A DNA stretch of 64,000 bases from Methanobacteriota archaeon (GCA_002722735.1 PBMR01000015.1:33673-97672); one strand, 5' to 3'; shown: positions 19,353 through 37,001, counted from the first letter of the stretch. Notes: generated by a model not told the origin, from the letters alone. Numbers and translations are program-made.

Positions 19353-22295
19353 ATGCAATGCCGCCAACCGAACTCTGATCATATGAGCAGGGGCATCACA
19401 GACTGGAGTCGATTCGAACGACTGACCCCCTTCAAGGTCACAGAGGTTCTCCTGGTGGCCAGTCAGTTCGACCGCTACCTCCTGGAAGAATCTGGCTATC
19501 TAGCAGAGATCCTGCAAGAGGAGTACTCGGTGCTGAACCTATCCCAGGCACCTAGAATCATCCATAGCCCTGATGCTGATGATGCCCTGAGCCTCATCGC
19601 CATTCGCAACTTCGAGTTGGTAATCACCATGACGAAAGTAGGATCGATGGACGCCTATACCTTTGCCAGGCTGGTTAAGGGGCATCATGTGGACTTGCCA
19701 GTGGTGATGCTGAGCCATAACACAAGGGAGTTGGCCACCCTCAGAACCGGTGATGGAATTGACAGGATTTTTGTTTGGGGAGGTGATAGTAGAATCCTAC
19801 TCGCGATTTGCAAGTTGATCGAGGATGAGAGGAATGTGGAGAACGACGTCAGGGACGGTGATGTTCAGGTAATTCTACTCGTCGAGGACAGCAGGAGGTT
19901 CTACTCAGCCTACCTGCCGCTCCTCTACACTCAACTGGTGCGGCAGACGACGAAGCTCATGGGGGAGGGGGGAAACTTCCATGAGAAGCTACTGAGGTTG
20001 AGGGCCCGGGCAAAGATCCTGCTCGCTTCGGACATGACGGCAGCCAAGGAAATAATTGACAAGTACTCAAGGAACATCATCGGAGTCTTCACCGATGGTA
20101 GATTTCCTAACCAAGGTGGTGAGAGAGACACTGCGGGCCTGGAGTTGATTCGTTATGCCCAGAGCGGTCATAGGTACCTCCCAATACTGCTGCAATCAAA
20201 GAATCTCGAGCTGAAGGAAGCAGTAGAGGAACTAGGTGTTCGTTTCCTCCACAAGGAAGATTCTTCTTTGTACCAGAGAATAGAGGAGTTCATGCTCGAG
20301 GAGATGGGTTTCGGCGATTTCATTTTCAGGATGGCCGATGGGACTGAGATTTGCAGATCATCGAATCTAGAGGAGTTCATTGCCGGGGTGGGGAAGGTAC
20401 CGATTGAGTCCATAGAGTTCCATGCGACGAGAAACGAATTCTCCCATTGGCTCCGTGCGCGAACCGAATTCTCGCTCGCAGCCTCCATCAGGCCGATGAC
20501 CCTGGATGATTTCGAGAGCTCAGAAGATGTGCGGGAGTACATATCTGGATTGATAAAATCCCATATTTCCAATGTCAGGAAGAAAACGATTAGGGATCAC
20601 GAATCTGGTTTAAGCGAGGTTGGTTTCCAGAGAATTGGACGAGGGAGCCTAGGGGGGAAGGGACGGGGCCTCGCGTTCGTCTACACGAAGATGGAGGAGT
20701 TGGGGCTAGGTGATGAGTTTCCAGACGTTGACTTCATTGTCCCAAACTCGGTAGTCATTGCCACGGGGGTCTTCGATGATTTCGTGGCTAGGAACGAACT
20801 GGCTAGATACGCTCATGAGGACAGATCCGATGATGAGGTGAATCGGGCATTCCTGAGTAGTCAATTCGGAGAGGTTGAAATCAATGAGATTAGGGGGGTG
20901 CTGGAGAATTCAGAATGGCCGCTGGCAGTGCGATCATCGAGCTTGCTCGAAGATTCCAGTCACCAACCCTTTGCGGGGGTGTACGCGACACACATGCTCG
21001 CGAATGATCATACTGACCTCGAGGTCAGACTCAAGCGACTGCTTGAAGCTGTTAAGTTGGTATACGCATCGATCTTTCACATGAGTGCCAAGAAATACGT
21101 CACGGCCACTGCCAACACCATTGAGGACGAGAAGATGGCAGTGGTTATTCAGGAGGTCATAGGGAAGGAGGTTTCGGGTCGCTTCTACCCCGAAATCTCC
21201 GGGACGGCAAGGAGCCGCAACCACTATCCAGTCGATCCTCTCAGAATGGAGGACGGACTGGCTGCCGTCTGCATCGGTCTTGGCAGGCAGGTCTCCTCAG
21301 GAGGCAAGTGCCTGAGATTCAGTCCAGGGCAGCCCAAGAGGGTTCACCAGTTCTACAACACCCAGTCGATTATCAATACCTCACAGAGTCGCTTCTTCGC
21401 CATTCCGATGGTTCAGGAATCGGGGCCGGTGCTCGCTGCTGAGGAGGAGAATCTTCTGCATCTGGGTTTATGTTCTGCAGAGGAGGACGGGGAGCTCTCC
21501 CTTGTCGGCTCCACTTACATCACTGCTGACGACCGGATCGTGGACTCGATCAAGGTCGAAGGGGGGCCAAGGCTAGTCACCTTCGCGCCGATCCTCAAGC
21601 ACCAGCGTTTTCCCCTCCCTCGCATTCTGCACCACGTGCTCATGACGTGCGAGAACTTCTTGGGCTCGCCCGTCGAACTGGAATTCGCCCTTACAGTCAA
21701 TCCCGAAGACGGGAGGCGCAAGTTCGCCATCTTACAAGTCAGGCCACTGATGGATGAATCGGTTGACATCGACATTGACTTGAACGAGGTCGACAAGGAC
21801 AAGGCTGTCTGCATCAGCAGCAAGTCACTGGGAAACGGCATCATCGACCATATTGTAGACGTCGTTTACGTGCACCCAAAGCGTATGAACAGGATGAAGA
21901 CGATGGATCTCATACCCATAATCGAAGAGATCGATGCCGGTCTCCGATCGGAGGACCGCCCCTACATTCTGATTGGACCAGGGCGTTGGGGGTCATCTGA
22001 CCCATCGTTGGGCATTCCCGTGCAATGGAACCAGATAATGGGGGCCAGGACCATCGTCGAGGTTCCTATGGATGACATTCGCGTGGAACCGTCCCAGGGC
22101 ACCCACTTCTTCCAGAACATCGTGACCTTCAACATAGGCTACCTGACCATCCTCGAGGGCGATCTGGTCGATTGGGAATGGCTCGATGGCACCGAGGCCT
22201 TGAGGGAGGAGAATGGACTACGTCACGTGAGACTAGGCTCGCCATTGAAGGTAGTCCTGGACAGTAGGGACTCCGAGGCCATTGTAATTAGATGA
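19353..22295 (+). CDS. Signal-transduction protein: two receiver-like (CheY-like) domains fused to a PEP-utilising-enzyme N-terminal ATP-grasp (PPDK_N / PEP synthase-like nucleotide-binding) domain
   Basis: The N-terminal 380 aa has REC-like alternating beta/alpha segments (VILLVEDSRRFYSAYLPLL...; GVFTDGRFP). The middle region matches the PPDK_N fold family (SLGGKGRGLAFVYTKMEELGL..., VRSSSLLEDSSHQPFAGVYATH..., VVIQEVIGKEVSGRFYPEISG). No phosphohistidine swivel-domain motif is seen. Confidence 0.6.
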   Translation: MQCRQPNSDHMSRGITDWSRFERLTPFKVTEVLLVASQFDRYLLEESGYLAEILQEEYSVLNLSQAPRIIHSPDADDALSLIAIRNFELVITMTKVGSMDAYTFARLVKGHHVDLPVVMLSHNTRELATLRTGDGIDRIFVWGGDSRILLAICKLIEDERNVENDVRDGDVQVILLVEDSRRFYSAYLPLLYTQLVRQTTKLMGEGGNFHEKLLRLRARAKILLASDMTAAKEIIDKYSRNIIGVFTDGRFPNQGGERDTAGLELIRYAQSGHRYLPILLQSKNLELKEAVEELGVRFLHKEDSSLYQRIEEFMLEEMGFGDFIFRMADGTEICRSSNLEEFIAGVGKVPIESIEFHATRNEFSHWLRARTEFSLAASIRPMTLDDFESSEDVREYISGLIKSHISNVRKKTIRDHESGLSEVGFQRIGRGSLGGKGRGLAFVYTKMEELGLGDEFPDVDFIVPNSVVIATGVFDDFVARNELARYAHEDRSDDEVNRAFLSSQFGEVEINEIRGVLENSEWPLAVRSSSLLEDSSHQPFAGVYATHMLANDHTDLEVRLKRLLEAVKLVYASIFHMSAKKYVTATANTIEDEKMAVVIQEVIGKEVSGRFYPEISGTARSRNHYPVDPLRMEDGLAAVCIGLGRQVSSGGKCLRFSPGQPKRVHQFYNTQSIINTSQSRFFAIPMVQESGPVLAAEEENLLHLGLCSAEEDGELSLVGSTYITADDRIVDSIKVEGGPRLVTFAPILKHQRFPLPRILHHVLMTCENFLGSPVELEFALTVNPEDGRRKFAILQVRPLMDESVDIDIDLNEVDKDKAVCISSKSLGNGIIDHIVDVVYVHPKRMNRMKTMDLIPIIEEIDAGLRSEDRPYILIGPGRWGSSDPSLGIPVQWNQIMGARTIVEVPMDDIRVEPSQGTHFFQNIVTFNIGYLTILEGDLVDWEWLDGTEALREENGLRHVRLGSPLKVVLDSRDSEAIVIR

Positions 22296-22335: not shown

Positions 22336-24342
22336 ATGTCAGTTGGGAGCGAAGTCGAGGCACGACTATTCTTCGCCCATGAAAAGATTAGGGATTCGCA
22401 GAAAAAGATGGTCTCTGATGGGATAATTGCACTCCAAGAAGGAGTTTCCCTTTTGGCTGCGGCCCCAACGGGAATAGGGAAGACCGCCGCGGCACTCGCA
22501 TCTGCATTTGAAGTCACGAATTTCTACAACGCCAATCCAGAGGTTCCGAAGATCCTATTCATGACAGGGAGGCAATCACAGCACAGAATCGTTGTCGAAA
22601 CTGTGAGGCTAATCAACTCCAATCTCCCATCCGGAAACCCGAGAATCAGACTAGTGGATATAATCGGGAGGGAAGGTATGTGTGATAGCGTAAACAAATC
22701 TACCGGCGAATGCACCTGCGAAGAGGGTATTGTTGAACCTGCTCGGAAAGGTAGGAGAGCAGACTTGGAGGATTTCATCCTAGAAGAACCAAGACATGTT
22801 GACCGGGTGATCAAAGAGGGAGTTGCTAGGGGAATTTGTGCTTGGGCGACAGCGAGATCGGCAGTCAGAAGAGCGGACATTCTTGTCTGCGACTACAACC
22901 ACGTCTTCGTGGAGGAAGTCCGGGAAAATTCGCTTCCCGTGATGAGTGTGGATTTGGATAACGCGATTCTCGTGGTAGACGAAGCCCACAACCTACCAGA
23001 CAGAATCCGACTTGGTTTGGAGAGGATTGTTACGACAGAAGTGTTCAGAAGAGCAAGAATTGACGTTAACGCGCACAAGGAAAACCTTGAGGAGTCGACA
23101 AAGAAGCTTGACTTGCCGGCATCCAAAAGCCATAGTGATGCATTACTCCTGGAGAAGCAGGTCAAGGCATTGGAGGACGACTCCGCATTGAGCACGTGGT
23201 TCTCGGAGAAGACCGCTGAGAATGAAGCATCCAAGGTTGGTGATCTGAGAATAGATACTGGTGAGTTCCTCGGAGTCATTGCGAGAGCGATAGAAGGCAT
23301 CGAGGAAAATGGTCCTGAAGATGGGATTGCCAGAATAAAGAGAATGAACAGTAGGCTGCTTTCGGTTGTGGTTGATGAGGATGATTCTATAGAGGAGGAC
23401 GGGCAAAACGACTGTATCAGGCTGGCAGAGTTTCTGGATATCTGCATCAAGTACAGGGATAGTCCTGCCCTGTCTCTGATTTTCGATAACGTTCTGGAAG
23501 TCCCACGGGTGATTAGTCATCTGCTTGACCCAAGTGTTGTTGGTGGACCGATATTCAAGCAGTGCGCAGGCTCAATTCTAATGTCTGGAACCCTATTTCC
23601 TCCAGTCATGTACTCGGACATCCTAGGGATCCCCGAAGATAAAGCGATGTGCAAAGAGTACTATTCCGGATTCCCCCCTGATAACAGGCCGGTTTTTATT
23701 GCAAGAGACGTGACTAGCAAGTTCACAGAGAGGGAGGGAAGCTACTCCTCCATTCGCGACCACATTAGATCCGTACTGGAGAAGACGGATGGAAACGTAG
23801 CGGTTTTCGCCCCTAGCTATGCGATGTTGGATAGGATTTATGCAGACATTGACTATACGTTCGGTAAGCAGAGGTTTCGTGAGGAGAGGGGGATGAGCAA
23901 GAGATCGGTCGATGGTACGGTAGGAAGGCTGCATGAGTTGAAATCCATGGGGTTTGGAGCGGTATTATTTGGCGTATTGAGTGGTAAGTTCTCAGAGGGT
24001 GTTGACTATGCAGAAAATGTCCTTGATGCTGTGGTTTGCATAGGCCTCCCCCTACCCCCACCAAGTGCTAGGCAGGACGCCTTGCTAGAGTACTACGCTG
24101 GGCGCTTCGGGAGGTCGAAGGCATGGAAATATGCGAGTCTACAACCAGCGGTAAACAGTATCATGCAGGCTTTGGGTAGGCCGATTCGTAAGAGGGAGGA
24201 TAAGGCCATCATAGTACTACTGGAGAAGCGATTGCTTGAGAGGAGAGTCAGAGATTGCTTGCCCAAGTCTATGCACACTCGACAAACCACCAGCCCGTCC
24301 AGGACCTCCAAGCACGTAGAGCGCTTCTTCGAGATGTCATAA
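22336..24342 (+). CDS. xpd: ATP-dependent DNA helicase, XPD/Rad3 (DinG) family, with 4Fe-4S domain
   Basis: Walker A AAAPTGIGKTAAAL; DEAH box VVDEAHNL; four Cys in the FeS insertion (GMCDSV, GECTCEEG, GICAWATA); C-terminal helicase motifs (VLFGVLSGKFSEGVDY, GRPIRK). Confidence 0.8.
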   Translation: MSVGSEVEARLFFAHEKIRDSQKKMVSDGIIALQEGVSLLAAAPTGIGKTAAALASAFEVTNFYNANPEVPKILFMTGRQSQHRIVVETVRLINSNLPSGNPRIRLVDIIGREGMCDSVNKSTGECTCEEGIVEPARKGRRADLEDFILEEPRHVDRVIKEGVARGICAWATARSAVRRADILVCDYNHVFVEEVRENSLPVMSVDLDNAILVVDEAHNLPDRIRLGLERIVTTEVFRRARIDVNAHKENLEESTKKLDLPASKSHSDALLLEKQVKALEDDSALSTWFSEKTAENEASKVGDLRIDTGEFLGVIARAIEGIEENGPEDGIARIKRMNSRLLSVVVDEDDSIEEDGQNDCIRLAEFLDICIKYRDSPALSLIFDNVLEVPRVISHLLDPSVVGGPIFKQCAGSILMSGTLFPPVMYSDILGIPEDKAMCKEYYSGFPPDNRPVFIARDVTSKFTEREGSYSSIRDHIRSVLEKTDGNVAVFAPSYAMLDRIYADIDYTFGKQRFREERGMSKRSVDGTVGRLHELKSMGFGAVLFGVLSGKFSEGVDYAENVLDAVVCIGLPLPPPSARQDALLEYYAGRFGRSKAWKYASLQPAVNSIMQALGRPIRKREDKAIIVLLEKRLLERRVRDCLPKSMHTRQTTSPSRTSKHVERFFEMS

Positions 24343-24368
24343 TCAATGGGTTCATTCGGGTCCGTTCG

Positions 24369-24863
24369 ATGCATCGCTCCATGGTACGGTGGTCGAGAGT
24401 CGAGGTCGAGGTAGATGTCGACGATGAGGAAGGGGGTGTCAGCATGGATTCTCCCGGAACAGGGTTGGATGCGGACGCTCAGCAGATGCATGAGTTATTC
24501 CTTGGGGGACTGCCACACCTCTCCGAAGTTCAAGACCGTCATGCAGAGATCCTGGACGGAGTTTCCAACGCGGTAGACGGGACGAAGACATTCGTTAGGG
24601 CCGCGGTTCCGATGGGGGACTTCCTAGCAGAGTTAGGAGGGGCGTGGTCAGGCTCAGAGGCAGTAGTCCCCCTTCCCTCTTCCCTCCCAGGGGGAGTGGT
24701 CATTGAGACACTCATGGAAGAGGGGGTGCAAGTGGCACGCCTCATCTCGCCAGAGAGATTCGGCGGGATGCTCAGGACCTTCAGACTCCCCTTGGGCAAG
24801 ACCATTGCAGGAGCGACCTGGGAAGATGGTGTCCTGACCATCAGGATGAGTCAGCCTCGCTAA
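24369..24863 (+). CDS. Small heat-shock protein (Hsp20/alpha-crystallin family)
   Basis: C-terminal ATWEDGVLTIRM matches the conserved A-x-x-x-nGVLtv motif of the alpha-crystallin domain. Start moved to the internal ATG after the XPD stop; the track ORF start overlaps xpd. Confidence 0.65.
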   Translation: MHRSMVRWSRVEVEVDVDDEEGGVSMDSPGTGLDADAQQMHELFLGGLPHLSEVQDRHAEILDGVSNAVDGTKTFVRAAVPMGDFLAELGGAWSGSEAVVPLPSSLPGGVVIETLMEEGVQVARLISPERFGGMLRTFRLPLGKTIAGATWEDGVLTIRMSQPR

Positions 24864-27800
24864 GCCTCGGCCTCAATGGCCTTGGTGCTTCTTTGGGGGA
24901 TTTCTTGCAACTCCTCGATTTCCCGTAGAACCGAAGCTAGAGCGATCTTGGCATTCTCCCTATGATCCCCCCCAAGCTCGTGGCTAGAGTACCGCGCCTC
25001 CTCAAAAATCCGGTCGAGCGAGATTAGCGAGGACTCACTGATTGGCAGTGCATTGCGAATCGCGATTTCGAATTCCCTCACGGTCTCGAAATCCCTGCGG
25101 AGGAAGCCACTGCGCATCAGTACGGCGCACAGTTTCTGGTAGCATTCGAAGATTGCCTTCCTGAATTCGTCTCCCGATGCGAGCACGTCGGCAGTGTAAC
25201 TGAAGACGTCGGCGAGTTCCTTGATTGCCGTCTTGCGACGATGAGAAAGCACGACGAAGACCGAGGTAATCAAGACAGCGATGACCAATATAGAGACTAA
25301 GCCAAACACGACCGGGCCGAAGAAGGGGTCAGAGGAGTCCTCCTCATACCCTATTTGGACCCCCTCCCTAGGCAGATAGGCCAGGCTTCGAGCATCGATG
25401 AAATCAGAGTCCGAGTCCAGCATGACACTGAGCCTTCCCCACGAGGAGATGTCCGAGAGCGGAGGAAGGGGGGAGAGTGCCTTGAATTCGTACTCGAAGG
25501 TCCCCTCGGCATCAGTGAGGCGAGACATGGAGAAGTGAGAAGTGGTGCCATTCTGCAGCATAGCGATCATGGAAAGGCCCTCCACGGGTGAACCCGTGTC
25601 CCTAGCAGTGACATTGACAATCCCCCGTATCACCCTCTGACCGGTGGATAGTTCGATGCTGGATAAGGTGAAGTCGACCTCTATCACGACCGTGATTTCG
25701 ATATCCTTGGAGGCACCGTTTAGGAATCTCGACTGATCGGGCCCAATCTTGATGGTCACGATATTCTTGCCTGGGGGCATGAGCTCTTGCGCCTTTGCCT
25801 TCATCTGGAAGTTCATGGTGTTCGGATTGTCCCAGGGCCCCGTCTGGAGGGGGAGGGCGCTCTCACCCCATGAGAGGCTGATGGTAAGGTTCTCGAAGAT
25901 GCTCGAGTCGCCACCGATCTCCCTGACAAAGCCTTGAATGAGGATCGAGTGGGAGATGTTGCCCCTGATTATCTTCGAGGTGATGGGTTGGACCTCGATC
26001 AGCACGTCAGAGAGTGCGAAGACAGTCAGGTTGGCCTCGGTGGGGAGATAGAGGAACTCGCCCCCATATGAGAAGCTAATATTGTGACTCCCTCTTGGGA
26101 TGGCATACCCCAAGCTGTGACTGTAGTTGAACAGGCCACCCAACTCGGTGAAGACAGTCCCAACGACAATCCCGTCAAGAAGGACGGATACTTCTCTGTC
26201 ATCCAATCCCAGCTCGTAACCGGTGTCGCCCTCGTACAAGCGCCCAGAGAAGTTCCATTCGGACCCCCTAGTGGCTGACAATTCTTCGGTTTGGGCGCTG
26301 ATCACGGTGTGGTATGAGATAGTGAGGGTGGCTTCCACGTTGCCCTGCCTGTGGTACCCCTGGGCTGGAGCAATGACAGACAAAGTGTGGTTTCCAATAT
26401 CGAGGGAATCGGGGATTACCCATGGAAATGACCAATGGCCGTTATCACCGGTACTGGTGATGCCAATTAGAATTCCATCAAGGAATATCTCGATTGTGTG
26501 GTTCCCCAGCCAGCCTTCCTCAAGGTTGTCTTTGGCCGTTCCACGGAGGATTATGGTATCGTCCACTGCAGCGAGAGGAGGGTCCACAATGGAGATGAAC
26601 ACGGGGCCAAAGACAGTTATGACGGTGGATGAGTTGGATGACAGGACGAATTCCTCTCCGGCGAATTCGATTTCCACAATCCTATGGCCGAGAGGCATAT
26701 CAGGTGGCACTGGCATATAGACGCTGAACGAACCGTTGCCACCGACTTCCAGTCCAGTCATGAACTGGCCACCAACGGAGACTTCTATGCCCCTATCCGC
26801 CAAACCCCTGCCAACACCGTCTGTCAAGAGTCCTTGTATGAGAACTAGATCGGAACGATCGACTTCACCAGGAGAGGAGGTAATGATGACCTGGGATGTC
26901 TGGGTGACATTGAACCCGATGCTATTTGACGAAGGGAGATAGAACTCAGGGTTGAGTGAGTCCCCCTGCCCCATTGGATCGGCCCAAGTGAAGCCTCCGA
27001 GGAAGACAACACCCACTTGGTGAGACCCGAAGTACATGTCGAGAGGAAGGTCGTATGTTATCATCCAATGCCCATTGGTCGCATTGGAAATCGTAGTGTA
27101 AGTCGGTCCAACATCTGCCCCATCAATCGAGAGGTGGATGACCCCCCCAGCGAGAGTGCCATCCTCCAGCAACGGCTGGCCCCTCTCATCGAGCAGGGTG
27201 CCACTGAAGGTCACAGAATTCCCAACAATGGAGGGGTGGGTCGTTCCTGTAATCCTGAGTTCGCTCGGAACGAGGATGATTACGCGGGTCCAGACCTCGT
27301 CTCCAAGAAGTCCGGTAGTTCCGTTGACTCCAGTGAAGATGGCCGTCACAGTCATGGGACCCGGGTTACGGTCAGAATCAACGAGAAGTTCCGCAGAAGC
27401 ATTTCCATCGGGGTCCGTAATGCCATTCCACACTGGAGCGCCATCTATCTGCATTGTCAGTTGTGCAGACTGAACAGGGTTTCCAGCATTATCAATCAAA
27501 GACAATACGATGTTCACCCGATCCCCTCTGAGCGTCCTGCTGTCAGGATCGAGGTCTGTAGGATCGTCAATTGAGAGCAAGGAGAAACCCCGGCTGTCGA
27601 AGAGTGCTAATTCGGTTGCTGTGGTGTAGTAACTGACCTCGGGCGTGAATAACACGATGATACCGTGCGAACCACGGGGGAACGAGAGGTCCAGCCTGAG
27701 AAGAGCGCTCCAGTTCCCATCTGGTTCGTAGTTGAGTTGAGATACCGTGAAGGTATCTGTCTCGCCATCGATAGAGAATGTCAGAGTGGGATTGAGCAGG

Positions 27801-30800
27801 TTTCCCGTCCTGTCCGTGAGTGCGCTACCATTGCTGGAAACCAAAGATCCCGTGACGTTGAAGAACTCACCTGCAAGAGGATTGTCAATAATCGGATTGA
27901 TGGCCATGATGGCAGGTGATCTGACCGTAATAGTGCTAATCGTCCTGATTGTAGCGTGAAGGTCCTCTGAGCCGTTGAAGAACAAAGAAACGTTCACAAC
28001 ACCCAGAGGATGGTTGTGCGGAATATCGAATTCAAAGGCTATGCTGCCATCCCCTGAAGATAATTCCTGCTCCATCCAAGTGTCGTGGAACTTGGCTGAG
28101 ACGGAGAATCCGGATAATGCTTCGTCATTGTCACTGAACTCGACGAGGCGGGATGTGATGGTGGCCGTATCCCCCCTGTTGACGACGGTGACTAGGAAGG
28201 GGGTCGTGCCGACGAACTGGGGGATTCCCCTCACGAGAATCGAGGCATCACCGGTCCCAGTCAGGTAAAAGGGGGTTGTCCCGTTCAAGACACTCACCAC
28301 GACTGTACGCATTCCCTTGGTCACTCCATCGCCCAGGGTGTCTGTGGGTACGGAGAAGTTGAAGCTACCATTGCTGTCTGTCGTATGGTTCTCGATAAGT
28401 ATCTCTTCTGGTTGGTCGAGGAAGAAGACCTCGAGTCCCACTGGTCCTTCGACGGTCCTGTTCGAATCGATTGAGTCGAGGACTGTTCCTGCGATGGTGA
28501 AGTAATGCAGGGCAGTAACTTCGGTTGGAATACTACTGATCTCAACGAAGCTCGGGACCTGGACTGTTAGGTTGACGTTGCTATGGTTGCCAAGCCAGCG
28601 TCCGGCACTCTCAACACTTAAGTTATCAGAGAGATCATCTGGAGCATGGATTCTGACTTCGTAGAAGCCTGGTGCGATCGAAGAGGGGATTGTGGGGCTA
28701 AACGCAGCCACGCCGCCCGAACCCGTGATGGCAGAATCGAGTATCTGCTGGAGAGGCCCCCCCCAGTCGAAGTAAAGGTCGAGGTCCACGCCTGCAATGG
28801 CCTTTCCCTCATCTTCCACATCTGTGACAGTAGCGTTTACGATTAGATCGTCCCCTGCGACTAGAATGACCGCACTGGGCTCAGTTGTGACCACGAATTC
28901 TGATTGTATCCCCCCAGGGATCTCAGTGCCGTCGGAGATGGCGAAGTAGTGCCCACCAGGAGGGGGGTTGACAGTGAAGTCCAGCTTTATCCTTAATGTG
29001 TAGACCCCCGAAGCGACCCCGCTCGGCATCTCGAAGGATAGGTTGTAGCCGCCGGTCGCGGTATTCACCCACCCAGTGGCCAGAGGGTAGATGTCTGGAG
29101 CGGCAGGAAATCCATCGGGTGCCGGGGGCAGGCTCGAGGGGACCTCGAGTCTCAAGGTTACAGAAGAGTTGTTTCCGGTGACGGTCGAGAAGAGTACCAT
29201 GTCTCTGACGAATCCGGAGACCCGGTTGGTGCTGCCTCTGGGAGTCCAATCCAAGTCAATGGAGGCGCTGACGTTCGCCAAGCCCATAATCCGAATAGTA
29301 TCCTGGACTGAAGTCGGTTGCAACCACGTTGACCCGGAGTAGTTCATGACCCAATCATAGTCCCCGGCCTCCAACTCTCGGTCTGGCGTCCAAGCGACGG
29401 CGAGTCTCGGTGAACTTGGGTCGGTCACGTTCCATACCCCAGTCCCATCGAAATCGAGGTTGTAGCCCCCCTCAAACGAGGCGAAGGAACTCCCCGTGTG
29501 ATCTGTGAGGATGACTTCAACCTCTGCTGAAACCCCGCGCGGCTTGGATACCAAAGTGTAATTGAATTCAACAAAGCTCCTGATTCCGTAATCTGACAAC
29601 TGAACTTGGTCATTGGCGAAAAGACCATCAGCGTCGAACTGAATCCGTATTTCCACTGGCCCTGCAGGAATTGGCACCTCTGCAGCAGAGAAGCTCCAAT
29701 TGACGACGAACTCACCAGATGACAGGGGGTCCCAAGATGTATCGTTCATTTGCCAAGTGTGCAGAGTAGTGTACGGGCCTGAGATATCCAGTCTCCTCAT
29801 TTCCAGAATCAGAGTGCCGTTCAGTGTAGTTGGGTTTACGCCCCTGCTCAGAACGGTGCCGTTGAGGAAGATGGGGTTATCAATTTCGAGGACGGAGTTA
29901 TTGGAGCCCAAGGCCTCGAGTGTGACGGACAGGTTCGGAGATAGAGTGATGTTAAACTGCAGGGAAATGGAACCGGGTCTCGCATGGTAGGATGGAGGTG
30001 TGGCGTTGTTCATATCGTCCTCGTGCCAACCCGAAAAGCTGATTGAGGCATTAATCAGGCCCAGTGGCTCAGATTCAGCGATTGGGACTGAGAACTCATA
30101 GTACCCGCCTCCAGCCACAATTGTGGTGAGATTTACCTCGCCTTCGTTCACGGTAACATAGTTGAGGACTATTTGGAGGTCATCGACCTGGGACGGATCC
30201 AGTTTGGGAATACTGGACCAAGACAATTGCCCAATGATGGTGGTGTTTACCCCAATTCCTAGCATTGGCTGTTCTAGTGGGGGGGGTTCCGAGATCGAAA
30301 GCGCCACATTATCAGTGATGTTGATGAGCCACGGGAACGTGACCCCTTGCGTACCAACATAACCCTGCTCCGTGGTTTGAATCACCAGAGAACCGTAACC
30401 AGGCCGTATGGCTTGTGGGGGCAGGCCACTGAGGTTGAAGTTGCCGTTCTCATCGGTCATGGCAGTTGCAACCAAGTGATTGCTGGCAGCAGAGCGTCCC
30501 GGAATGTCGTCGGCATTGTCGGGGTCTACAAGGTACATGGAAATGGAGAGATTCTCGACAGCAGTCGAGTTGTCTACAAACTGCAAAGTCCCCTCAACCC
30601 AGATAGTCTCGGAGATTGAAATGTTCCTATCTATCGCACTCGGGCCCCAAGTCTCGTTGACAGCCTCAATCAGGGACATCGGTGGGCAGGCCTCGAATGG
30701 AACCCAACCAAGGTCCAAATCGCCCTGGTTCTGATTGGTTTGAAGGTGAACCTCCACCCAGCGGGAGAAGTCCTTGCCGAAGACAGCGAAAGAATCTCCG

Positions 30801-33800
30801 TTCCACGTCCCCCCCGAGAAACCTGTGACCTTCCTAGCAGGGATGCCGGCTAGCCGGACCATAACTGCGAATACGGTGGCAAACTCGTCACAACTCCCCT
30901 CGCGTGACGCGTTGAGTAGCCAATGGGAGATATCGCTGTCTGTCCCTAGGCCGTCCACCATCTTCGAGCCATCATGGTTCCTGAGGAATGTGATCGTCTC
31001 GTTTCCATTGGTAAGGAAGTCCTGAATGGCAGCCACCTTGTCCCAGGCTGATAAAGCTCCGGACTGGTTGATTACGGCCTGAGTGACGTTGTTGACGTAG
31101 GCACTGTCCTGGTCCAAGTACGTGACAGGGAGGTCGGTAGCGTAGGTGCTTCCTGTGAATGCGGTGGTATTCTCCTTTACCTCGGCCGAGAGGATGACCT
31201 CAGGAGCGGTTACGTACAGGACCTCGATGATTGATGTGTCGACTATGACGTCCCTAGTGTAATTAGAGAAGTTTAGTCCTGCGGTGAAATCAGACCAAGT
31301 AGAGTAGTTCTGCACGTTATAGGGCTGTATCAGTTCCTGACCCGGACCAATGTAACCCGCCTCGTCGAAGATGATCTCCCATGGGAGTTGTCCGCTATGG
31401 TTCCAGAACGACTGGTCGGCGACTCCCTGATTTGTCGACCAATCCGGGAGAATTTGAGTGAACCCAACTAGGCTGGAGTTGACCCCCCACGAAACCCCTG
31501 TGTAGGAATCGTACGTATGCCATCTCCAGTAGTGAGTAACCGTGGGATCCATTCCAATTGATTTGTTGGTGGCAATGAACATCAGCGCGTTCTCAATTAG
31601 GTCATCCGTTGGATCGAACGGGTCTCCAGGGGATCCGTCACAATCTGAGAGCCAGTACTCAGGTGGGCATTCTTCACCGTCGGGAACGCCTCCACCATCC
31701 GTATCAGGATCCCTCCAATCAGTGCCGATTTCTTCCTCTATGGTATCTGGTATCCCATCCCCGTCGCTGTCGAGTGGGTTGATGTCGTCATCCGGGTTGT
31801 TTTGGGGGTTGGTACCGTCGATGTACTCCTGGCCATCCTCCACCCCACCGTTGTCAGAATCAGCCACGTTCCACAGGGTGACCCAAGTATCGAAGGTGAG
31901 ATTCCCACCCATAATGCCGAAAATCATATCACAGCCAGTTGTGTTCTCAAAGTAGTTGTTGAGACCGTCGTCATCTGAATCAAGCAGGTTGTGGCATGGC
32001 TCCAAGGGGTTGGTTTGGTTCTGAATCTCCGACAGGTCGTCCACCCCATCACCATCGGAGTCTGTCAGGTTGACGTAGGAAAGGTACCCCCATGTCCCCA
32101 TCCTTTCCTCCCAATCTGCTATACCGTCTCCATCCAAGTCCGGGTAATCGTCGTCGCAATGGGGGTCGTTAACCGCACCAACTGTTGCATTCCAGCACCA
32201 AGACCCGTTGGTGAAGACGACGTTTGTTGCACCACCTGGCAACGGTGTGTCGACTCCTTTCAGCCAGTGGACATCGACGGATGTGAATCTGAATGGGGTT
32301 CGCTCGCCATTGAGTGTCTCGTAGTACGCCATTGGAGCGCCCGACTGTCGCCAATCAAGCGGGTTAGGGTTGATTCCGATGGTCGAATTAAGGGTCAGGA
32401 TATTCTGGTTTGAGTCCCAGTCGGTGATTGTGAAAACCAGTTCGACGGAGGACGTGCAAGGATCCGTATTGCGGAAGAAGTCACGCTCGTCTCCATCGTT
32501 AATACCCCCTCCATCGGAGTCGGAGACGTTCCACAGCGAGCAACTAACATTCTCCTGCCAATTTGGGAGGCCATCACCGTCGAAGTCCCCATCATCGTTT
32601 ACCCTTGTTGGATCAGTCTCTCCCTCGTCTACGACCCCGTTTCCGTTGAGGTCCTCCTCACCATCGTCCAGATAGTCCCCATCCGTGTTGTTGTCACGGG
32701 GATCCGAGCCCTGTGGTGGATTGTCGCCGTATGAGCCGTTGAACTCTATGCCATCGAGGATGCCATCTGAATCCGTATCCACGGCGGTCGGATCAGTCAG
32801 CAGGACGAGGGCCTCGAAGGAGTCATTGAGACCGTCACCATCGGTGTCGTTGTTATTGGGGTCAGTCTGCGTAATCCCGTCGACTTCGGCCGTGAATATC
32901 TGACAACCACCGGGACCGAGGGAAAGTACGGGATTGCAAGGGGATTCGGTGGCTGTCATATTGGTCGGCCCGGGTCGAAAGTACTGGGTGGGGGGGAATG
33001 TGGAGCCGTTCCTAGTGCCCCAAGCCGGATTGACGTATTCGTAGATATTGGCAAGGCCATCCCCATCAGGGTCTCCGTAAGTCCCATCCTGATTGGAGTT
33101 CGAGGTGGGGTCCAAGCCGTGAGCTGCTTCCCAACCGTCGGGCATTCCATCGCCGTCTGTGTCCCATCCATTGGGATCCTCGTCCATCAGGCCGTCACCA
33201 TCGTCGTCATTGGAGTCGCAATCTGCGTCTCCATCATTGTCTCCATCGTCGGAATCCACCATGCCATCCTTGTCGTTGTCAAAGGTGTCCGTGCAGATAT
33301 TGCCCATTGGATCCTCATCAGCCCCATCAGAACCCGTCCCTTGGATCAGTTGCATGGCAGACTCCTCATCCCAGTCGCTGACGGGGACGGTCCCGTTCCA
33401 CCAGACCCCATTGTCCAGATTGTTGGGAGTGGATGGCTCGTCCCACCCGTCTGGAATGCCGAAAAGGTACTCGTTTAGGTTGGTGAGGGCATCCGAGTCA
33501 GGGTCCCCAGTGGAGCCGTTGTCACCAGCAGATGATAGGGGATCGAGGCCATACTGCCACTCCCAACCGTCGGGAAGACCGTCGTTGTCGGAATCCCAGT
33601 CCTGTGGTTGGGTGTTGATGTAGAACTCGAGGCCATAGGAAAGACCGTCGCCGTCTTGATCGGTGGTTGCCATTGCCTCCCAAATCCCAAATTGCATCAC
33701 CGCGTGGCTCGATAACAGAAGGAAGGCCGTGAATACGAGTGCTGAGCGCTTCCTACCCCTGGGATCCAAGGCCTCGTAATCCCTAATTACGAACAGCAAG

Positions 33801-33808
33801 GCTACCAT
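24860..33808 (-). CDS. Giant (2982 aa) secreted transglutaminase-like cysteine-protease-fold protein with N-terminal thrombospondin-type-3-like Ca-binding repeats, multiple carboxypeptidase-regulatory/Ig-like domains, a C-terminal TM helix and a cytoplasmic DUF4129-like tail
   Basis: Signal-peptide-like N-terminus. About 15 repeats of DxDxDGxxDxxE (DQDGDGLSYGLE, DSDNDGLPDGWE, DTDGDGMPDGWE, ...). Transglutaminase core GSCDEFATVFAVMVRLAGIPARKVTGFSGG ... FSRWVEVHL. TDENGNFNLSGLPP-type CarbopepD_reg-like repeats. A TM helix (VVFGLVSILVIAVLITSVFVVL) precedes ~170 cytoplasmic residues ending ...LDRIFEEARYSSHELG (DUF4129-like). Very rich in N-x-S/T sequons. Confidence 0.7.
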   Translation of the reverse strand: MVALLFVIRDYEALDPRGRKRSALVFTAFLLLSSHAVMQFGIWEAMATTDQDGDGLSYGLEFYINTQPQDWDSDNDGLPDGWEWQYGLDPLSSAGDNGSTGDPDSDALTNLNEYLFGIPDGWDEPSTPNNLDNGVWWNGTVPVSDWDEESAMQLIQGTGSDGADEDPMGNICTDTFDNDKDGMVDSDDGDNDGDADCDSNDDDGDGLMDEDPNGWDTDGDGMPDGWEAAHGLDPTSNSNQDGTYGDPDGDGLANIYEYVNPAWGTRNGSTFPPTQYFRPGPTNMTATESPCNPVLSLGPGGCQIFTAEVDGITQTDPNNNDTDGDGLNDSFEALVLLTDPTAVDTDSDGILDGIEFNGSYGDNPPQGSDPRDNNTDGDYLDDGEEDLNGNGVVDEGETDPTRVNDDGDFDGDGLPNWQENVSCSLWNVSDSDGGGINDGDERDFFRNTDPCTSSVELVFTITDWDSNQNILTLNSTIGINPNPLDWRQSGAPMAYYETLNGERTPFRFTSVDVHWLKGVDTPLPGGATNVVFTNGSWCWNATVGAVNDPHCDDDYPDLDGDGIADWEERMGTWGYLSYVNLTDSDGDGVDDLSEIQNQTNPLEPCHNLLDSDDDGLNNYFENTTGCDMIFGIMGGNLTFDTWVTLWNVADSDNGGVEDGQEYIDGTNPQNNPDDDINPLDSDGDGIPDTIEEEIGTDWRDPDTDGGGVPDGEECPPEYWLSDCDGSPGDPFDPTDDLIENALMFIATNKSIGMDPTVTHYWRWHTYDSYTGVSWGVNSSLVGFTQILPDWSTNQGVADQSFWNHSGQLPWEIIFDEAGYIGPGQELIQPYNVQNYSTWSDFTAGLNFSNYTRDVIVDTSIIEVLYVTAPEVILSAEVKENTTAFTGSTYATDLPVTYLDQDSAYVNNVTQAVINQSGALSAWDKVAAIQDFLTNGNETITFLRNHDGSKMVDGLGTDSDISHWLLNASREGSCDEFATVFAVMVRLAGIPARKVTGFSGGTWNGDSFAVFGKDFSRWVEVHLQTNQNQGDLDLGWVPFEACPPMSLIEAVNETWGPSAIDRNISISETIWVEGTLQFVDNSTAVENLSISMYLVDPDNADDIPGRSAASNHLVATAMTDENGNFNLSGLPPQAIRPGYGSLVIQTTEQGYVGTQGVTFPWLINITDNVALSISEPPPLEQPMLGIGVNTTIIGQLSWSSIPKLDPSQVDDLQIVLNYVTVNEGEVNLTTIVAGGGYYEFSVPIAESEPLGLINASISFSGWHEDDMNNATPPSYHARPGSISLQFNITLSPNLSVTLEALGSNNSVLEIDNPIFLNGTVLSRGVNPTTLNGTLILEMRRLDISGPYTTLHTWQMNDTSWDPLSSGEFVVNWSFSAAEVPIPAGPVEIRIQFDADGLFANDQVQLSDYGIRSFVEFNYTLVSKPRGVSAEVEVILTDHTGSSFASFEGGYNLDFDGTGVWNVTDPSSPRLAVAWTPDRELEAGDYDWVMNYSGSTWLQPTSVQDTIRIMGLANVSASIDLDWTPRGSTNRVSGFVRDMVLFSTVTGNNSSVTLRLEVPSSLPPAPDGFPAAPDIYPLATGWVNTATGGYNLSFEMPSGVASGVYTLRIKLDFTVNPPPGGHYFAISDGTEIPGGIQSEFVVTTEPSAVILVAGDDLIVNATVTDVEDEGKAIAGVDLDLYFDWGGPLQQILDSAITGSGGVAAFSPTIPSSIAPGFYEVRIHAPDDLSDNLSVESAGRWLGNHSNVNLTVQVPSFVEISSIPTEVTALHYFTIAGTVLDSIDSNRTVEGPVGLEVFFLDQPEEILIENHTTDSNGSFNFSVPTDTLGDGVTKGMRTVVVSVLNGTTPFYLTGTGDASILVRGIPQFVGTTPFLVTVVNRGDTATITSRLVEFSDNDEALSGFSVSAKFHDTWMEQELSSGDGSIAFEFDIPHNHPLGVVNVSLFFNGSEDLHATIRTISTITVRSPAIMAINPIIDNPLAGEFFNVTGSLVSSNGSALTDRTGNLLNPTLTFSIDGETDTFTVSQLNYEPDGNWSALLRLDLSFPRGSHGIIVLFTPEVSYYTTATELALFDSRGFSLLSIDDPTDLDPDSRTLRGDRVNIVLSLIDNAGNPVQSAQLTMQIDGAPVWNGITDPDGNASAELLVDSDRNPGPMTVTAIFTGVNGTTGLLGDEVWTRVIILVPSELRITGTTHPSIVGNSVTFSGTLLDERGQPLLEDGTLAGGVIHLSIDGADVGPTYTTISNATNGHWMITYDLPLDMYFGSHQVGVVFLGGFTWADPMGQGDSLNPEFYLPSSNSIGFNVTQTSQVIITSSPGEVDRSDLVLIQGLLTDGVGRGLADRGIEVSVGGQFMTGLEVGGNGSFSVYMPVPPDMPLGHRIVEIEFAGEEFVLSSNSSTVITVFGPVFISIVDPPLAAVDDTIILRGTAKDNLEEGWLGNHTIEIFLDGILIGITSTGDNGHWSFPWVIPDSLDIGNHTLSVIAPAQGYHRQGNVEATLTISYHTVISAQTEELSATRGSEWNFSGRLYEGDTGYELGLDDREVSVLLDGIVVGTVFTELGGLFNYSHSLGYAIPRGSHNISFSYGGEFLYLPTEANLTVFALSDVLIEVQPITSKIIRGNISHSILIQGFVREIGGDSSIFENLTISLSWGESALPLQTGPWDNPNTMNFQMKAKAQELMPPGKNIVTIKIGPDQSRFLNGASKDIEITVVIEVDFTLSSIELSTGQRVIRGIVNVTARDTGSPVEGLSMIAMLQNGTTSHFSMSRLTDAEGTFEYEFKALSPLPPLSDISSWGRLSVMLDSDSDFIDARSLAYLPREGVQIGYEEDSSDPFFGPVVFGLVSILVIAVLITSVFVVLSHRRKTAIKELADVFSYTADVLASGDEFRKAIFECYQKLCAVLMRSGFLRRDFETVREFEIAIRNALPISESSLISLDRIFEEARYSSHELGGDHRENAKIALASVLREIEELQEIPQRSTKAIEAEA

Positions 33809-33877: not shown

Positions 33878-36814
33878 TTAGACTAGTTCAACATCCTCAT
33901 CGTCGTATCTGTCAGTTCTATGTCCACTATCCAAGACGGTGACAGGTGCTGGAATCTGCTGCTCTGCATCTGTTTCCACTGTTGCTTGATCATCGGAAAT
34001 CGCATCAATCAGTGACATCTGTGCGGCCCAACGACGCCGATTCATCCTGCTCTGGATCCCTGCAAAGAGGAGCAGTGCGCTGACAACAACCAGCACCAAT
34101 GTGATCGGGCGGGGATGGGTCAGCTCGTTGATGAGAATGTCGGGGATTGAACCAATCTCAACCACGGCATCTAGGGTGAACGTTGCTGTGTATGACTCGG
34201 AAAAACCTTGCTCGGTATCGAGAGGGGTGGCTGAGATTGAAATTGGGATTAAGTCACCGTTGTTCGCCGACTCAGAAACGGAAATCTCGACTGTGAAGGC
34301 GGTTTCCTCGAAGGCCCCGATCTCGATGAGTGGTGATCCGGACAAGCCTCCTATCTCGGCATTCCAGTCATTTTCCTCGACGTCGGACTCCAGCAGGACT
34401 GTGAGGGGGCTGTTTCCTTGGTTCTTGACTTTCATCTGAATCGAGTATTGGCCGCCTGGAACGAGTTTGGTGTTCTGAGACACCTGAAGGATTTCGAGCA
34501 TGGGGTCGTCAGCATCGATCTCGAAAACCATGGGCAGGTCAAAGTACCGCGGATCCCCATCCTCTGTGTCCTCGACGACCCTCAGGTATACGGTGTGGTT
34601 ACCGACTTCGACTTGGTTAGTCATAGTGGCGGTGACGAAGACCTCGGTAAAGTCGCCAGGTCCGAGCGAGACTCTGGGGATCGATTCGCCGTCCGCATCG
34701 GTGATTTGGAAATCCCATTGGCCGTAAGCTGGGTTGCGATCGGTGTTTTCCTTCAGGGAGGACGGGTTCTGCAATAACCACCATGTTGCTGCCTCATCCC
34801 CAGTCATGCTGTTGGTGATTCGAGCACGGAACTCGATTGTCGGCCTATCTGACCCGGGGGCGCATAGTGATACCTTCATGTGACCCAAGGGGGTTCCGTC
34901 ACAGTCCTGTGAAACCTCAGCGCGGACACCGAATGTCCTCTGGATGGTGAATGTCACAACTGATTTCAATGAGGAATTGCCGACGCTGGTGACCTCAACC
35001 TCGATCTCCCCGATATCTGGGTCTTCTCTGTCCAAACTAGGCTTGATTCCAAGAATGAACACTTGGGTCGCATGACGCTCCAACAGCGATGTATGGAAGG
35101 TTCCATCGCCCTCATCCTCCAGAATCCTCTGACCGGTAGTGTTGTCATGTAGTTGGAAAAGTGACTTGGAGCGTTTAAGGACGTCAATTCGGAACGAATC
35201 AGCATCGAAACCCGTGTTGAATATCTCGAGGATGAAGGGGTTGAACTCGTCGTAGTCGGTGAACCTCGGAATCGTTGGATCTATTGCGTCGGCCCTAGAT
35301 GAGTTGGCGATCGGAATCTTGTGGTCATCGGACCAGATAGAGGTGACGGGGGGTTGGTAAACATCTATCTTCTCGATATTCAGAATGAGAACGTCTTGGT
35401 GCACGACCGACATCACACCATCAACATCAGCCTCGGCAACGGCACGGATCTCGAGCTTCTTGGCCGTTCCAGTGAGGTCACCGGGAGCTGTGAGAGTGAC
35501 GGTGGGATTGAGAATGGTGCCACCCGAATTGAGTTCGTATCCGGCGGGTGAGTCGAACTCGATTAGCCATGAGCTACCGAGGTTGGTCAGGACCTCCAGT
35601 TCTACGAGCATCGACGTGGTGGAATCACCCCTATGGACTAGTTGGAGTGGAATTGGAGTAATTTGGCCGGGGGCGAAGTACTCCACGTTCCTATCGTGCC
35701 TGTGGTTGACGGATACTCCCCACTGGTGCATGGTGATTGGTTCGTGGTCAATAGCCACCGGATTGCCTTGGATATCGGTGACTCGAAGTTCTACGGAGTA
35801 CTCACCAGAAGGGAGGCCACTGGGGTATGTCCAGAGATATGTCCCAAAGATTCCGGTATTCGAGTCCTCGATGTCCTCATCATCCTCAGAAATTCTGTGA
35901 TCGACCACGTAGGTCCCTTCCGGGTCCCGCATCAGAAGTTCGACCTTCGCGATGTCGAACCTTCCGAACGAGCTCTTGGCATCGATAGAGAACTGCATTG
36001 CCCTGTCTTCTATGATGTCGTTGGGGAACCAATCGAGTTCCGGGCCTTCGGGGAGGTTTGCACCTTCCCTCTGTAGAACAATGATGCTTTTGCTCAGGGC
36101 GTTTGCATCGGCCTGCACGTTCGAGAACCTATTCTCGCCCGAGATTTGGTTCCACGCTACCTCTGCCGTGCAACTCGAGGAGAAGATTCCGCCATCGCAA
36201 CCGCTCATGCTCGCTCGCACATTGACCTCGAGTCGTTCGTCCTTGTCGACTGTGAATGACCGATCCCCCCCAATGTTGACTTCAAAGGATTCGTAGTCGA
36301 AGGAACAGGTGCTGGAGAAGGTGGAGTCGCACACTGCCCCCCCATCCCATGTCGAGCTGCCGACCGAGCCGCCAGAGGTCCGGACCGAGACAGTCCAATC
36401 GACACTGGACTGCGAGGATCCGGTAGCTTTTAGAAACAGATTGACCGGCAGGTAGTACGAATCATTGGCGTGGTACTTGCGCCCGAAGAACTCCATTGAG
36501 GAGATGAGTTCATTCGATTTGAACTCAACATTTGAATCGAGGGCGCTAGCAGTCTCCTGACCTCCGCTTTCGGGAATCTTGGTGGTAATCAGCCCGTCCA
36601 TTCCCGAGCCGTTCCCACTAGCGAAGTACAGGGTGTAGAAGTTGGCATCGGGGGGGCTTGAGTCGACTCTTGAGGGGAGTGGGGCGAGGTTGTCCCTGGA
36701 GTCTCCGGTTAGCCCGACTGGTAGTAGCATCAGGGCCACTATGGCATAGGTGACGAGGTGGGCTCGGCCGCATGACTCGATTCTTGAGCGATTTCGCACG
36801 ATTGTCCGTCGCAT
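33878..36814 (-). CDS. Secreted surface protein (978 aa) with signal peptide, beta-rich extracellular region and C-terminal TM anchor plus acidic cytoplasmic tail; directly upstream of, and co-oriented with, the giant transglutaminase-like gene
   Basis: ATG start; the N-terminal TM/signal segment is AIVALMLLPVGLTG; many sequons; C-terminal TM helix ITLVLVVVSALLLFAGI followed by RMNRRRW and an acidic tail. Confidence 0.5.
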   Translation of the reverse strand: MRRTIVRNRSRIESCGRAHLVTYAIVALMLLPVGLTGDSRDNLAPLPSRVDSSPPDANFYTLYFASGNGSGMDGLITTKIPESGGQETASALDSNVEFKSNELISSMEFFGRKYHANDSYYLPVNLFLKATGSSQSSVDWTVSVRTSGGSVGSSTWDGGAVCDSTFSSTCSFDYESFEVNIGGDRSFTVDKDERLEVNVRASMSGCDGGIFSSSCTAEVAWNQISGENRFSNVQADANALSKSIIVLQREGANLPEGPELDWFPNDIIEDRAMQFSIDAKSSFGRFDIAKVELLMRDPEGTYVVDHRISEDDEDIEDSNTGIFGTYLWTYPSGLPSGEYSVELRVTDIQGNPVAIDHEPITMHQWGVSVNHRHDRNVEYFAPGQITPIPLQLVHRGDSTTSMLVELEVLTNLGSSWLIEFDSPAGYELNSGGTILNPTVTLTAPGDLTGTAKKLEIRAVAEADVDGVMSVVHQDVLILNIEKIDVYQPPVTSIWSDDHKIPIANSSRADAIDPTIPRFTDYDEFNPFILEIFNTGFDADSFRIDVLKRSKSLFQLHDNTTGQRILEDEGDGTFHTSLLERHATQVFILGIKPSLDREDPDIGEIEVEVTSVGNSSLKSVVTFTIQRTFGVRAEVSQDCDGTPLGHMKVSLCAPGSDRPTIEFRARITNSMTGDEAATWWLLQNPSSLKENTDRNPAYGQWDFQITDADGESIPRVSLGPGDFTEVFVTATMTNQVEVGNHTVYLRVVEDTEDGDPRYFDLPMVFEIDADDPMLEILQVSQNTKLVPGGQYSIQMKVKNQGNSPLTVLLESDVEENDWNAEIGGLSGSPLIEIGAFEETAFTVEISVSESANNGDLIPISISATPLDTEQGFSESYTATFTLDAVVEIGSIPDILINELTHPRPITLVLVVVSALLLFAGIQSRMNRRRWAAQMSLIDAISDDQATVETDAEQQIPAPVTVLDSGHRTDRYDDEDVELV

Positions 36815-36915: not shown

Positions 36916-37001
36916 GCAGGGGTGCCCGAGTTGGACAAAGGGGCCGGACTTAAGCTCCGGTGCTTAGCGCTTCGTGGGTTCGAATCCCTCCCCCTGCACC
37001 A
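36916..37001 (+). tRNA. tRNA-Leu (anticodon UAA), encoded CCA
   Basis: Acceptor stem GCAGGGG/CCCCTGC with discriminator A. The anticodon stem CCGGA/TCCGG carries the loop CTTAAGC (anticodon TAA). There is a long variable arm and a TTCGAAT T-loop. Confidence 0.85.

Follow-up and report, generated by a model that had tools for sequence, protein, structure and literature searches.

A giant TgpA-related membrane protein of marine archaea that has lost the catalytic histidine of its transglutaminase-like domain

A 64,000-nt stretch of DNA from a Methanobacteriota archaeon (GCA_002722735.1, PBMR01000015.1:33673-97672), called the window below and numbered from its first letter, carries on its (-) strand a giant gene at 24860..33808, with the stop codon at 24860-24862. 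From the list of open reading frames (ORFs) and the translation, the product is a predicted type-I membrane glycoprotein of 2,982 aa. It is homologous to TgpA, a bacterial membrane transglutaminase, and has lost the catalytic His of that family. The reading towards which we lean is that of a TgpA-derived, non-catalytic, Ca2+-binding and N-glycosylated surface fibre with a C-terminal transmembrane (TM) anchor.

In the mechanism proposed, a Sec-type signal peptide would export an ectodomain of ~2,780 residues, heavily N-glycosylated, and the C-terminal TM helix would fix it to the membrane. The strongly conserved distal head would be held some tens of nm off the membrane by a stalk of 15-16 repeats, probably beta-sandwich. 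The head would consist of about 15 thrombospondin type 3 (TSP3) Ca sites, with six disulfide-like Cys pairs as staples, and a transglutaminase-fold domain. In that domain the His is lost, and the former nucleophile, Cys973, is probably tied by a disulfide to a new residue, Cys1041. The papain-like cleft may have been reused for binding or for structure, as in EPB42 and Rad4, and the head, meaning the TSP3 array together with the locked cleft, would bind a conserved ligand or a neighbouring copy. On the inside, a cytoplasmic DUF4129 bundle would tether the fibre to a partner or oligomerise it. The net role would be that of a Ca2+-dependent surface fibre serving adhesion or envelope organisation, rather than that of a protease or cross-linker.

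The transglutaminase-like domain and its degenerate site

Residues 727-1055 (30644..31630; this and all further features of the giant gene lie on the (-) strand) form a TgpA-like ectodomain. A transglutaminase (TGase) domain had been named in the original prediction, which a model made from the sequence of the window, and it is confirmed by profile as well as by fold. The Pfam family Transglut_core (PF01841) matches residues 958-1040 (30689-30937) with an E value of 4.8e-12 and 46.6 bits, against a cut-off of 23, and the top match of the domain in a sequence search of PDB is the periplasmic domain of Pseudomonas aeruginosa TgpA (6G49). In an AlphaFold2 (AF2) model, residues 873-1046 are predicted at a confidence (predicted local distance difference test, pLDDT) of ~75-95; C973 opens a helix (973-986), which is followed by strands at 1014-1024 and 1032-1038. 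A Foldseek search with this model returned TgpA first (6G49/6G4H; E 1.5e-7 and probability 1.0 for 6G49), and next other TGase-like proteases and TG2. By the model, then, the papain-like alpha+beta transglutaminase fold is present, with a Cys at the N-terminus of the helix packed on a beta-hairpin.

The kinship is not limited to the core. A profile built from the orthologues matches 16 TgpA-like proteins of 620-870 aa (E 1e-11 to 1e-23). About 120 residues upstream of the core there is a weak YWR..Y..G..W motif, collinear with the TgpA-like proteins, and homology with TgpA therefore probably spans the entire TgpA ectodomain. The giant protein thus descends, by its homology to TgpA, from the family in which an extracytoplasmic TGase-like domain is followed by a TM segment and a cytoplasmic DUF4129 domain. 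The original prediction had seen this kinship with the compact TGase-TM-DUF4129 module, and it holds: TgpA is the best match in sequence and in fold, and DUF4129 follows the TM helix. The module had, however, been placed at the end of the extracellular region, whereas the core falls within the first third of the chain, with ~1,800 residues between it and the TM helix.

The catalytic site itself (30686..30892) is degenerate. It comprises Cys973 (30890-30892), Ser1015 in place of the His (30764-30766), Glu1039 in place of the Asp (30692-30694) and an extra Cys1041 (30686-30688). Column counts given here and below refer to 60 sequences, the full-length set including the window protein. The nucleophile position, C973 in the motif GSCDEFA, is invariant in 60/60. 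In every alignment, be it with TgpA 6G49 or with TgpA-like proteins, the catalytic His of DAHAWVEV faces Ser1015 of DFSRWVEV. This column holds Thr in 48 and Ser in 12 of the 60 sequences, and His in none. The same is seen more widely. An exhaustive profile search with the TGase-like domain found 9,872 homologues, 98 representatives of which were compared at the active-site columns; those of the Poseidoniales-type clade (P0108-P0115 and P0122) have S, T, D, N, L or A at the position of the catalytic His. The His of 'WVEVH', which had been taken as catalytic, is residue 1021; it is on the same strand as the canonical position but six residues farther on. It was considered as a displaced catalytic His and rejected: it is Q in 3/60 orthologues and R in several clade representatives, so that the column reads H/Q/R over the clade. 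Since the triad His is lost in 60/60 sequences, the suggestion that the protein is a protease or a cross-linking enzyme finds no support.

The lost His is accompanied by a gained Cys. C1041, two residues after the acid position, is invariant (60/60), and C973, D974 and E1039 are likewise invariant or nearly so. Among the 98 representatives, Cys at acid+2 is confined to the His-less clade, where all members have it; the rest mostly have Thr, with one Ser and two gaps. The extracellular part of the protein has 14 Cys, all of them invariant or near-invariant. Twelve fall into short-range pairs within the head, which leaves 973 and 1041 as a seventh pair. These two probably form a disulfide across the former active site. 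Such a bond would make the domain a pseudoenzyme, and the TGase-like domain is probably that, no longer a canonical enzyme. Inactive transglutaminase-like domains that serve as scaffolds are known from EPB42, Rad4 and FBXO21 (PMC10318531).

Architecture and conservation of the giant protein

The N-terminus, residues 1-47 (33668..33808), resembles a signal peptide of the cleavable type. As read from the sequence and from a hydropathy peak at residue 24, it has RGRKR, a hydrophobic core and then AMA/TTD, which fits the signal peptide that had been predicted.

The acidic head proper extends over residues 48-726 (31631..33667), with an Asp content of 18%. It has 14 canonical TSP3-type motifs (DxDxDGxxDxxE) and some three or four degenerate copies, the latter spotted by eye in the translation, and the earlier count of about 15 such repeats was accurate. 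The pattern [DN]x[DN]x[DN][GDN]xx[DNE] occurs 14 times in residues 1-740, where 1.4 occurrences would be expected; 500 shuffles gave at most 5. The Pfam family TSP3_bac (PF18884; cut-off 25) scores 27.4 bits on the whole protein and 41.4 bits on residues 1-403. The ligand positions of the motifs are 97-100% invariant, and the head is accordingly predicted to bind calcium. The six Cys pairs of the head (172/197, 291/302, 423/451, 538/551, 605/626 and 714/723) are invariant, the lone exception being an X at 551. Together with the DUF4129 core, the distal head is the most conserved part of the giant protein.

The stalk, residues 1056-2800 (25409..30643), is built of 15-16 tandem, diverged repeats of ~105 aa. 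Matches of the single sequence to itself have a period of ~100-108 residues, and an iterated, self-trained repeat profile finds 15 non-overlapping units of ~105 aa in residues 1056-2708, with a sixteenth probable. The repeats had been assigned to a CarboxypepD_reg-like beta-sandwich. The tandem array stands, while membership of that family was rejected: CarboxypepD_reg (PF13620) scores 23.9, 20.3 and 17.9 bits, all below the cut-off of 32.3, and Big_1, Big_3_5, MG2 and Invasin_D3 give comparable sub-threshold matches. The units are probably immunoglobulin (Ig)-like, or beta-sandwich, in nature.

A single strong TM helix, as predicted, follows at residues 2829-2855 (25244..25324), with hydropathy peaks of up to 2.94 and then HRRK, in keeping with the positive-inside rule. 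The cytoplasmic tail, residues 2856-2982 (24863..25243), contains the DUF4129 match at 2889-2953 (24950-25144) and the motif FEEARYS. In the whole protein the score for DUF4129 (PF13559) is 24.7 bits, just under the cut-off of 24.8; the tail alone reaches 30.4 bits (E 4e-7), and all of 46 tail homologues match the family. The DUF4129-like tail of the original prediction is therefore right in its family and motif but was overestimated in length, which is ~127 and not ~170 residues. The AF2 model of the tail (pLDDT 78) is all-helical: one unbroken helix of 48 residues (2830-2877) passes through the membrane and leads into a helical bundle. A Foldseek search of this model against PDB gave nothing at E <= 0.001, just generic four-helix bundles. 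At the start of DUF4129 two cytoplasmic Cys, 2889 and 2894 (FECYQKLC), are invariant in all 60 sequences; the pair could be a metal site or a dimer-interface site.

These topology indicators make the protein type I, with ~2,780 residues of ectodomain outside and the tail inside. The distribution of N-x-S/T sequons agrees with this arrangement: the whole protein has 82, where 28 would be expected, yet residues 2801-2982 have not one. Per 100 aa, sequons number 2.2-3.5 in the Poseidoniales clade and ~0.2-0.6 in most other homologues of the domain. Heavy N-glycosylation of the ectodomain is predicted from these motifs, and the family very probably lies at the cell surface in a heavily glycosylated form.

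The gene is real. Exactly the same protein was read on no fewer than 22 contigs, which belong to independent assemblies (ENA, NCBI and Tara) and always show the same neighbours, and 94 blocks of a public sequence collection list an exact copy. Because identical full-length copies occur in so many independent assemblies, misassembly or gene fusion as the source of the giant ORF is excluded, and the ORF first proposed at 24860-33808 stands at its full 2,982 residues. Relatives were sought as matched stretches in species-representative genomes (185 in number), from which 80 loci were fetched; the full-length orthologues come from the same genome scan. The titles of all 80 give Poseidoniales, Thalassarchaeaceae, 'Marine Group II' or a broader archaeal label, and the host is accordingly a Marine Group II (MGII) archaeon, most likely of the Thalassarchaeaceae (MGIIb). 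One homologous ORF was recovered per locus. The 59 full-length orthologues measure 2,948-3,096 aa as stop-to-stop frames, nearly all of them 2,982-3,017 aa. The family is thus near-universal in the fetched genomes and almost fixed in length at ~3,000 aa. The tail of one fragment labelled Poseidoniaceae (P0101) is 54% identical to the giant protein, which suggests that the family is order-wide. Fragments of the family carry the public labels 'transglutaminase-like domain-containing protein' or 'DUF4129 domain-containing protein', and a literature search found no paper tying Poseidoniales to a giant transglutaminase/DUF4129 protein.

Conservation is uneven along the chain. Identity of the orthologues to the window protein is 0.8-0.9 in the distal head (residues 51-450), 0.84 in the DUF4129 core (2901-2950), 0.65-0.71 in the TGase-like domain, 0.5-0.65 in the stalk and 0.40 in the signal-peptide block. 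The ratio of nonsynonymous to synonymous substitution (dN/dS, by the method of Nei and Gojobori, for the window gene against three close orthologues) is lowest in the TGase-like core (0.034-0.07), followed by the head (0.06-0.07), DUF4129 (0.06-0.10) and the stalk (0.11-0.14). Head, TGase-like domain, stalk and DUF4129 are all under strong purifying selection. Conserved length, identity and low dN/dS form a pattern unlike that of a fast-evolving, copy-number-variable adhesin. Nor is the protein a hypervariable island adhesin, because in 50/50 orthologous loci with full flanks the gene sits in a syntenic housekeeping setting (FolB, SDR, LipA, 2-oxoacid dehydrogenase and an XPD-like helicase).

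Alternative readings and the gene neighbourhood

Several points weigh against a non-catalytic, calcium-binding glycoprotein fibre. The loss of the His and the gain of the Cys are one inherited event in one clade, and repeated covariation is not seen. An invariant Cys at the nucleophile position and a core dN/dS of 0.04 would be expected equally of an active enzyme with a non-canonical site. Glu1039, present in 59/60 sequences, is uninformative either way, because Glu is the commonest residue at the acid position among the homologues that retain the His. Residues 727-872 are poorly predicted in the AF2 model. The Ig-like nature of the stalk is based on sub-threshold matches and a self-trained profile, and motifs are the sole basis both for calcium binding, through the TSP3 repeats, and for glycosylation, through the sequons.

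It is possible, although we hold it as a tentative alternative, that the protein is instead the chief component of the MGII envelope. In such a surface-layer (S-layer)-like or glycocalyx lattice, calcium-binding heads would associate laterally and the DUF4129 tails would organise the lattice from inside; the protein would not be an adhesin for external particles. The proposal partly overlaps with the fibre. The fixed length of ~3,000 aa, the near-universal presence in the fetched genomes, the syntenic housekeeping context and the identical sequence over many samples are in its favour. So are the very high density of sequons, with a giant AglB nearby, and the adjoining gene for a second membrane-anchored surface protein. 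However, Pfam and NCBIfam searches revealed no similarity to known S-layer families. Known archaeal S-layer proteins do not typically end in a TM helix and a folded cytoplasmic domain, which also counts against a lattice.

An active extracellular enzyme with a non-canonical site seems unlikely. Cys973 would remain the nucleophile, helped by Glu1039, Asp974 or Cys1041. Its substrates, to be cross-linked, trimmed or deamidated, would be glycoproteins of the envelope or proteins that have been captured, and Cys973/Cys1041 could be a redox switch. The (near-)invariance of these four residues is what such an enzyme would show, dN/dS is lower in the core than anywhere else in the protein, the modelled fold is intact with the Cys at the helix N-terminus, and TgpA, the closest characterised relative, is a transglutaminase in vitro (PMC3507681). 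Against this, the general-base His is missing in every member, and within the clade its position drifts through S, T, D, N, L and A, which is unexpected for a catalytic residue. The alternative, His1021, is itself H/Q/R and lies six residues down the strand, and the other extracellular Cys are all paired, so that 973 and 1041 look structural.

We regard as doubtful, too, a more ambitious proposal in which the protein is the principal envelope or glycocalyx fibre of MGII, the Cys973-Cys1041 pair of the pseudoenzyme is a structural lock or a site of redox or covalent capture, and DUF4129 couples a Ca2+-dependent lattice to the cytoplasm without MoxR/DUF58. Most improbable is a transmembrane sensor, in which a ligand or Ca2+ signal at the head would pass through the TM helix to DUF4129 and regulate a cytoplasmic partner in the role of MoxR/DUF58: although the conservation of the DUF4129 core equals that of the head, with Cys2889/Cys2894 invariant, and the modelled TM helix runs on as one helix of 48 residues into the cytoplasm, no signalling domain or partner gene was found nearby in the window ORFs or the fetched locus copies, DUF4129, a domain of unknown function, turned up in just two papers of the literature searched, and it is mechanically implausible that a signal would pass along a stalk of ~1,700 residues and one helix unless the protein oligomerises.

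The gene next upstream of the giant gene (33878..36814, (-)) is on the same strand, at a distance of 69 nt. It encodes a protein of 978 aa that has a hydrophobic segment near the N-terminus, a TM helix near the C-terminus and a predicted cytoplasmic tail of 55 residues. No family was recognised for it in Pfam, NCBIfam or PDB. The possibility that it is a diverged DUF58/vWA partner was considered and rejected, matches in the three collections being no better than noise. The gene is directly upstream in 50/50 full-flank loci, with a median identity of 61%, which leaves functional linkage unproven because the whole neighbourhood is syntenic. A tRNA-Leu(TAA) gene (36916..37001, (+)), between FolB and the 978-aa gene and on the opposite strand, splits the latter from the next gene on its own strand; the 978-aa and giant genes may therefore form one unit. 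The 978-aa gene is probably a co-transcribed partner of the giant gene and would encode another membrane-anchored surface protein. A scan for sigma-70 promoters and terminators gave fewer sites than shuffles, its consensus being bacterial and not applicable to an archaeon.

At the other end, a convergent ORF (24255..24863, (+)), to which different callers give 139-202 aa, has a 4-nt overlap with the giant gene at its stop codon. The ORF is kept in 50/50 loci at ~40% identity, and no family was recognised for it.

An ORF of 3,163 aa (2323..11814, (-)), 13 kb from the gene for the 82-sequon glycoprotein, is an AglB/STT3 fusion. It has ~10 N-terminal TM helices, the STT3/AglB part (Pfam E 2.8e-11, with WWDYG at residue 947), and a long extracellular region that matches CarboxypepD_reg (E 7.5e-14) before a C-terminal TM helix. 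This is unusually large for an AglB fusion. A CDP-archaeol synthase gene shows the window to be archaeal.

The gene for the archaeal release factor aRF1 (50923..52170, (-)) has a zinc-ribbon or treble-clef-like insertion in eRF1 domain 3 (residues 325-371; matches to DUF4379, Zn_Ribbon_YjdM and HypA). An M28 peptidase (46827..48692, (+)) begins with a SAP domain (E 2.7e-12), an odd partner for a peptidase. A 980-aa protein (19353..22295, (+)) has PPDK_N, a phosphoenolpyruvate-utilising, ATP-binding domain, as its sole domain, in the C-terminal half, with an N-terminus that is weakly response-regulator-like. Its gene was seen in 12/50 loci and sits at the edge of the 10-kb flank that was compared.

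Significance and relation to known systems

Among the planktonic archaea of the surface ocean, those of Marine Group II are reported to be the most abundant, and they are uncultured (PMC6461757). Our literature searches turned up no description of their cell envelope. Rinke et al. (2019) found 'thrombospondin genes' to be widespread in Poseidoniales and read them as adhesion factors (PMC6461757). Such genes had previously just been counted as generic adhesion genes; here one specific family of ~3,000 aa is defined. Its nearly fixed length and its very probable surface exposure and glycosylation make it a candidate for interaction with phages or host particles, for antibody or lectin enrichment, and for metaproteomic tracking. 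If the proposal of a principal envelope fibre is true, the family would provide the first molecular handle on the MGII surface, whether as virus receptor, attachment organelle or enrichment target, and the first functional context for DUF4129. In evolutionary terms, the TgpA membrane transglutaminase scaffold has grown tenfold and become a probable pseudoenzyme, still under strong selection. The automatic label 'transglutaminase domain-containing protein' should accordingly not be taken to mean that these archaea have the enzyme activity. Databases already contain the domain family, the tail and even giant forms of such an architecture, and the function given here for the window protein is a proposal.

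The closest known system is TgpA itself. MoxR and DUF58 are the usual neighbours of TgpA-type modules. In agreement with the original prediction, none was found in a Pfam scan of all window ORFs of at least 200 aa, nor in the gene tables of six fetched copies of the locus, so that the giant locus differs in this respect within its 64 kb. TgpA of P. aeruginosa (PA2873) is a 688-aa protein of the inner membrane with six TM helices and a periplasmic TGase domain, which has a conserved triad and transglutaminase activity in vitro (PMC3507681). The giant protein shares with it the TGase-fold ectodomain, the YWR..Y..G..W motif, and the TM helix with a cytoplasmic DUF4129 after it. However, TgpA and TgpA-like proteins are ~670-770 aa long and have a polytopic N-terminal DUF3488 and an intact Cys-His-Asp. 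The giant protein has a signal peptide in place of DUF3488; Pfam finds no match to this family (PF11992) in it, and there is a single N-terminal hydrophobic segment, whereas the TgpA-like matches P0017-P0019 do carry PF11992. It also has an extra TSP3 head of 680 residues, a repeat stalk of ~1,750 residues between the TGase-like domain and the TM helix, and an 8-residue hairpin insertion, in addition to the missing catalytic His and the added Cys at acid+2.

Size does not set the protein apart. Other giant TgpA-like proteins of 2-3.3 k aa exist (P0133 with 3,142 aa, P0150 with 3,030 aa, P0172, P0207 and others), encoded on Mb-size contigs, and they share the order Transglut_core, Ig-like array (Big_3_5, CarboxypepD_reg, Big_1, MG2), TM helix and DUF4129. 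The architecture had been considered unusual, a view that is weakened by these proteins. The others differ in having 4-6 N-terminal TM helices, HEAT repeats and 3-4 copies of Transglut_core; of these copies the one with the best score was examined in P0133 and P0150, and its residues C-H-D/E-T are intact. TSP3 repeats are absent from these giants, and their sequons number 0.2-0.6 per 100 aa against 2.7 in the window protein. P0150 and P0207 each come with a longest contig of 1,167,110 bases and could thus be paralogues of a single genome. TGase, Ig array, TM, DUF4129 is therefore an order that recurs, and the Poseidoniales protein is a distinct variant of this theme.

For the loss of catalysis, the nearest parallels are EPB42 (erythrocyte band 4.2), Rad4/XPC and FBXO21, in which the fold is likewise retained under selection, a catalytic residue lost, and the domain put to scaffold or binding use (PMC10318531). 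These proteins are, however, eukaryotic and intracellular, and their sequence kinship with the giant protein is just at the level of the superfamily. EPB42 is described simply as catalytically inactive, and human menin is without the catalytic Cys (PMC10318531). Unlike menin, the giant protein has kept that Cys and gained a second one.

The TSP3 head has its counterparts in CglD and MtsD of Myxococcus, surface proteins implicated in adhesion or cohesion, with which it has arrays of the calcium motif DxDxDGxxDxxE in common. In NCBIfam the giant protein matches parts of CglD and of MtsD with 75 and 55 bits; these scores are far under the equivalog cut-offs (400 and 800 bits), and the repeats alone are responsible for them. 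Neither CglD nor MtsD has a TGase-like domain, a TM helix or DUF4129.

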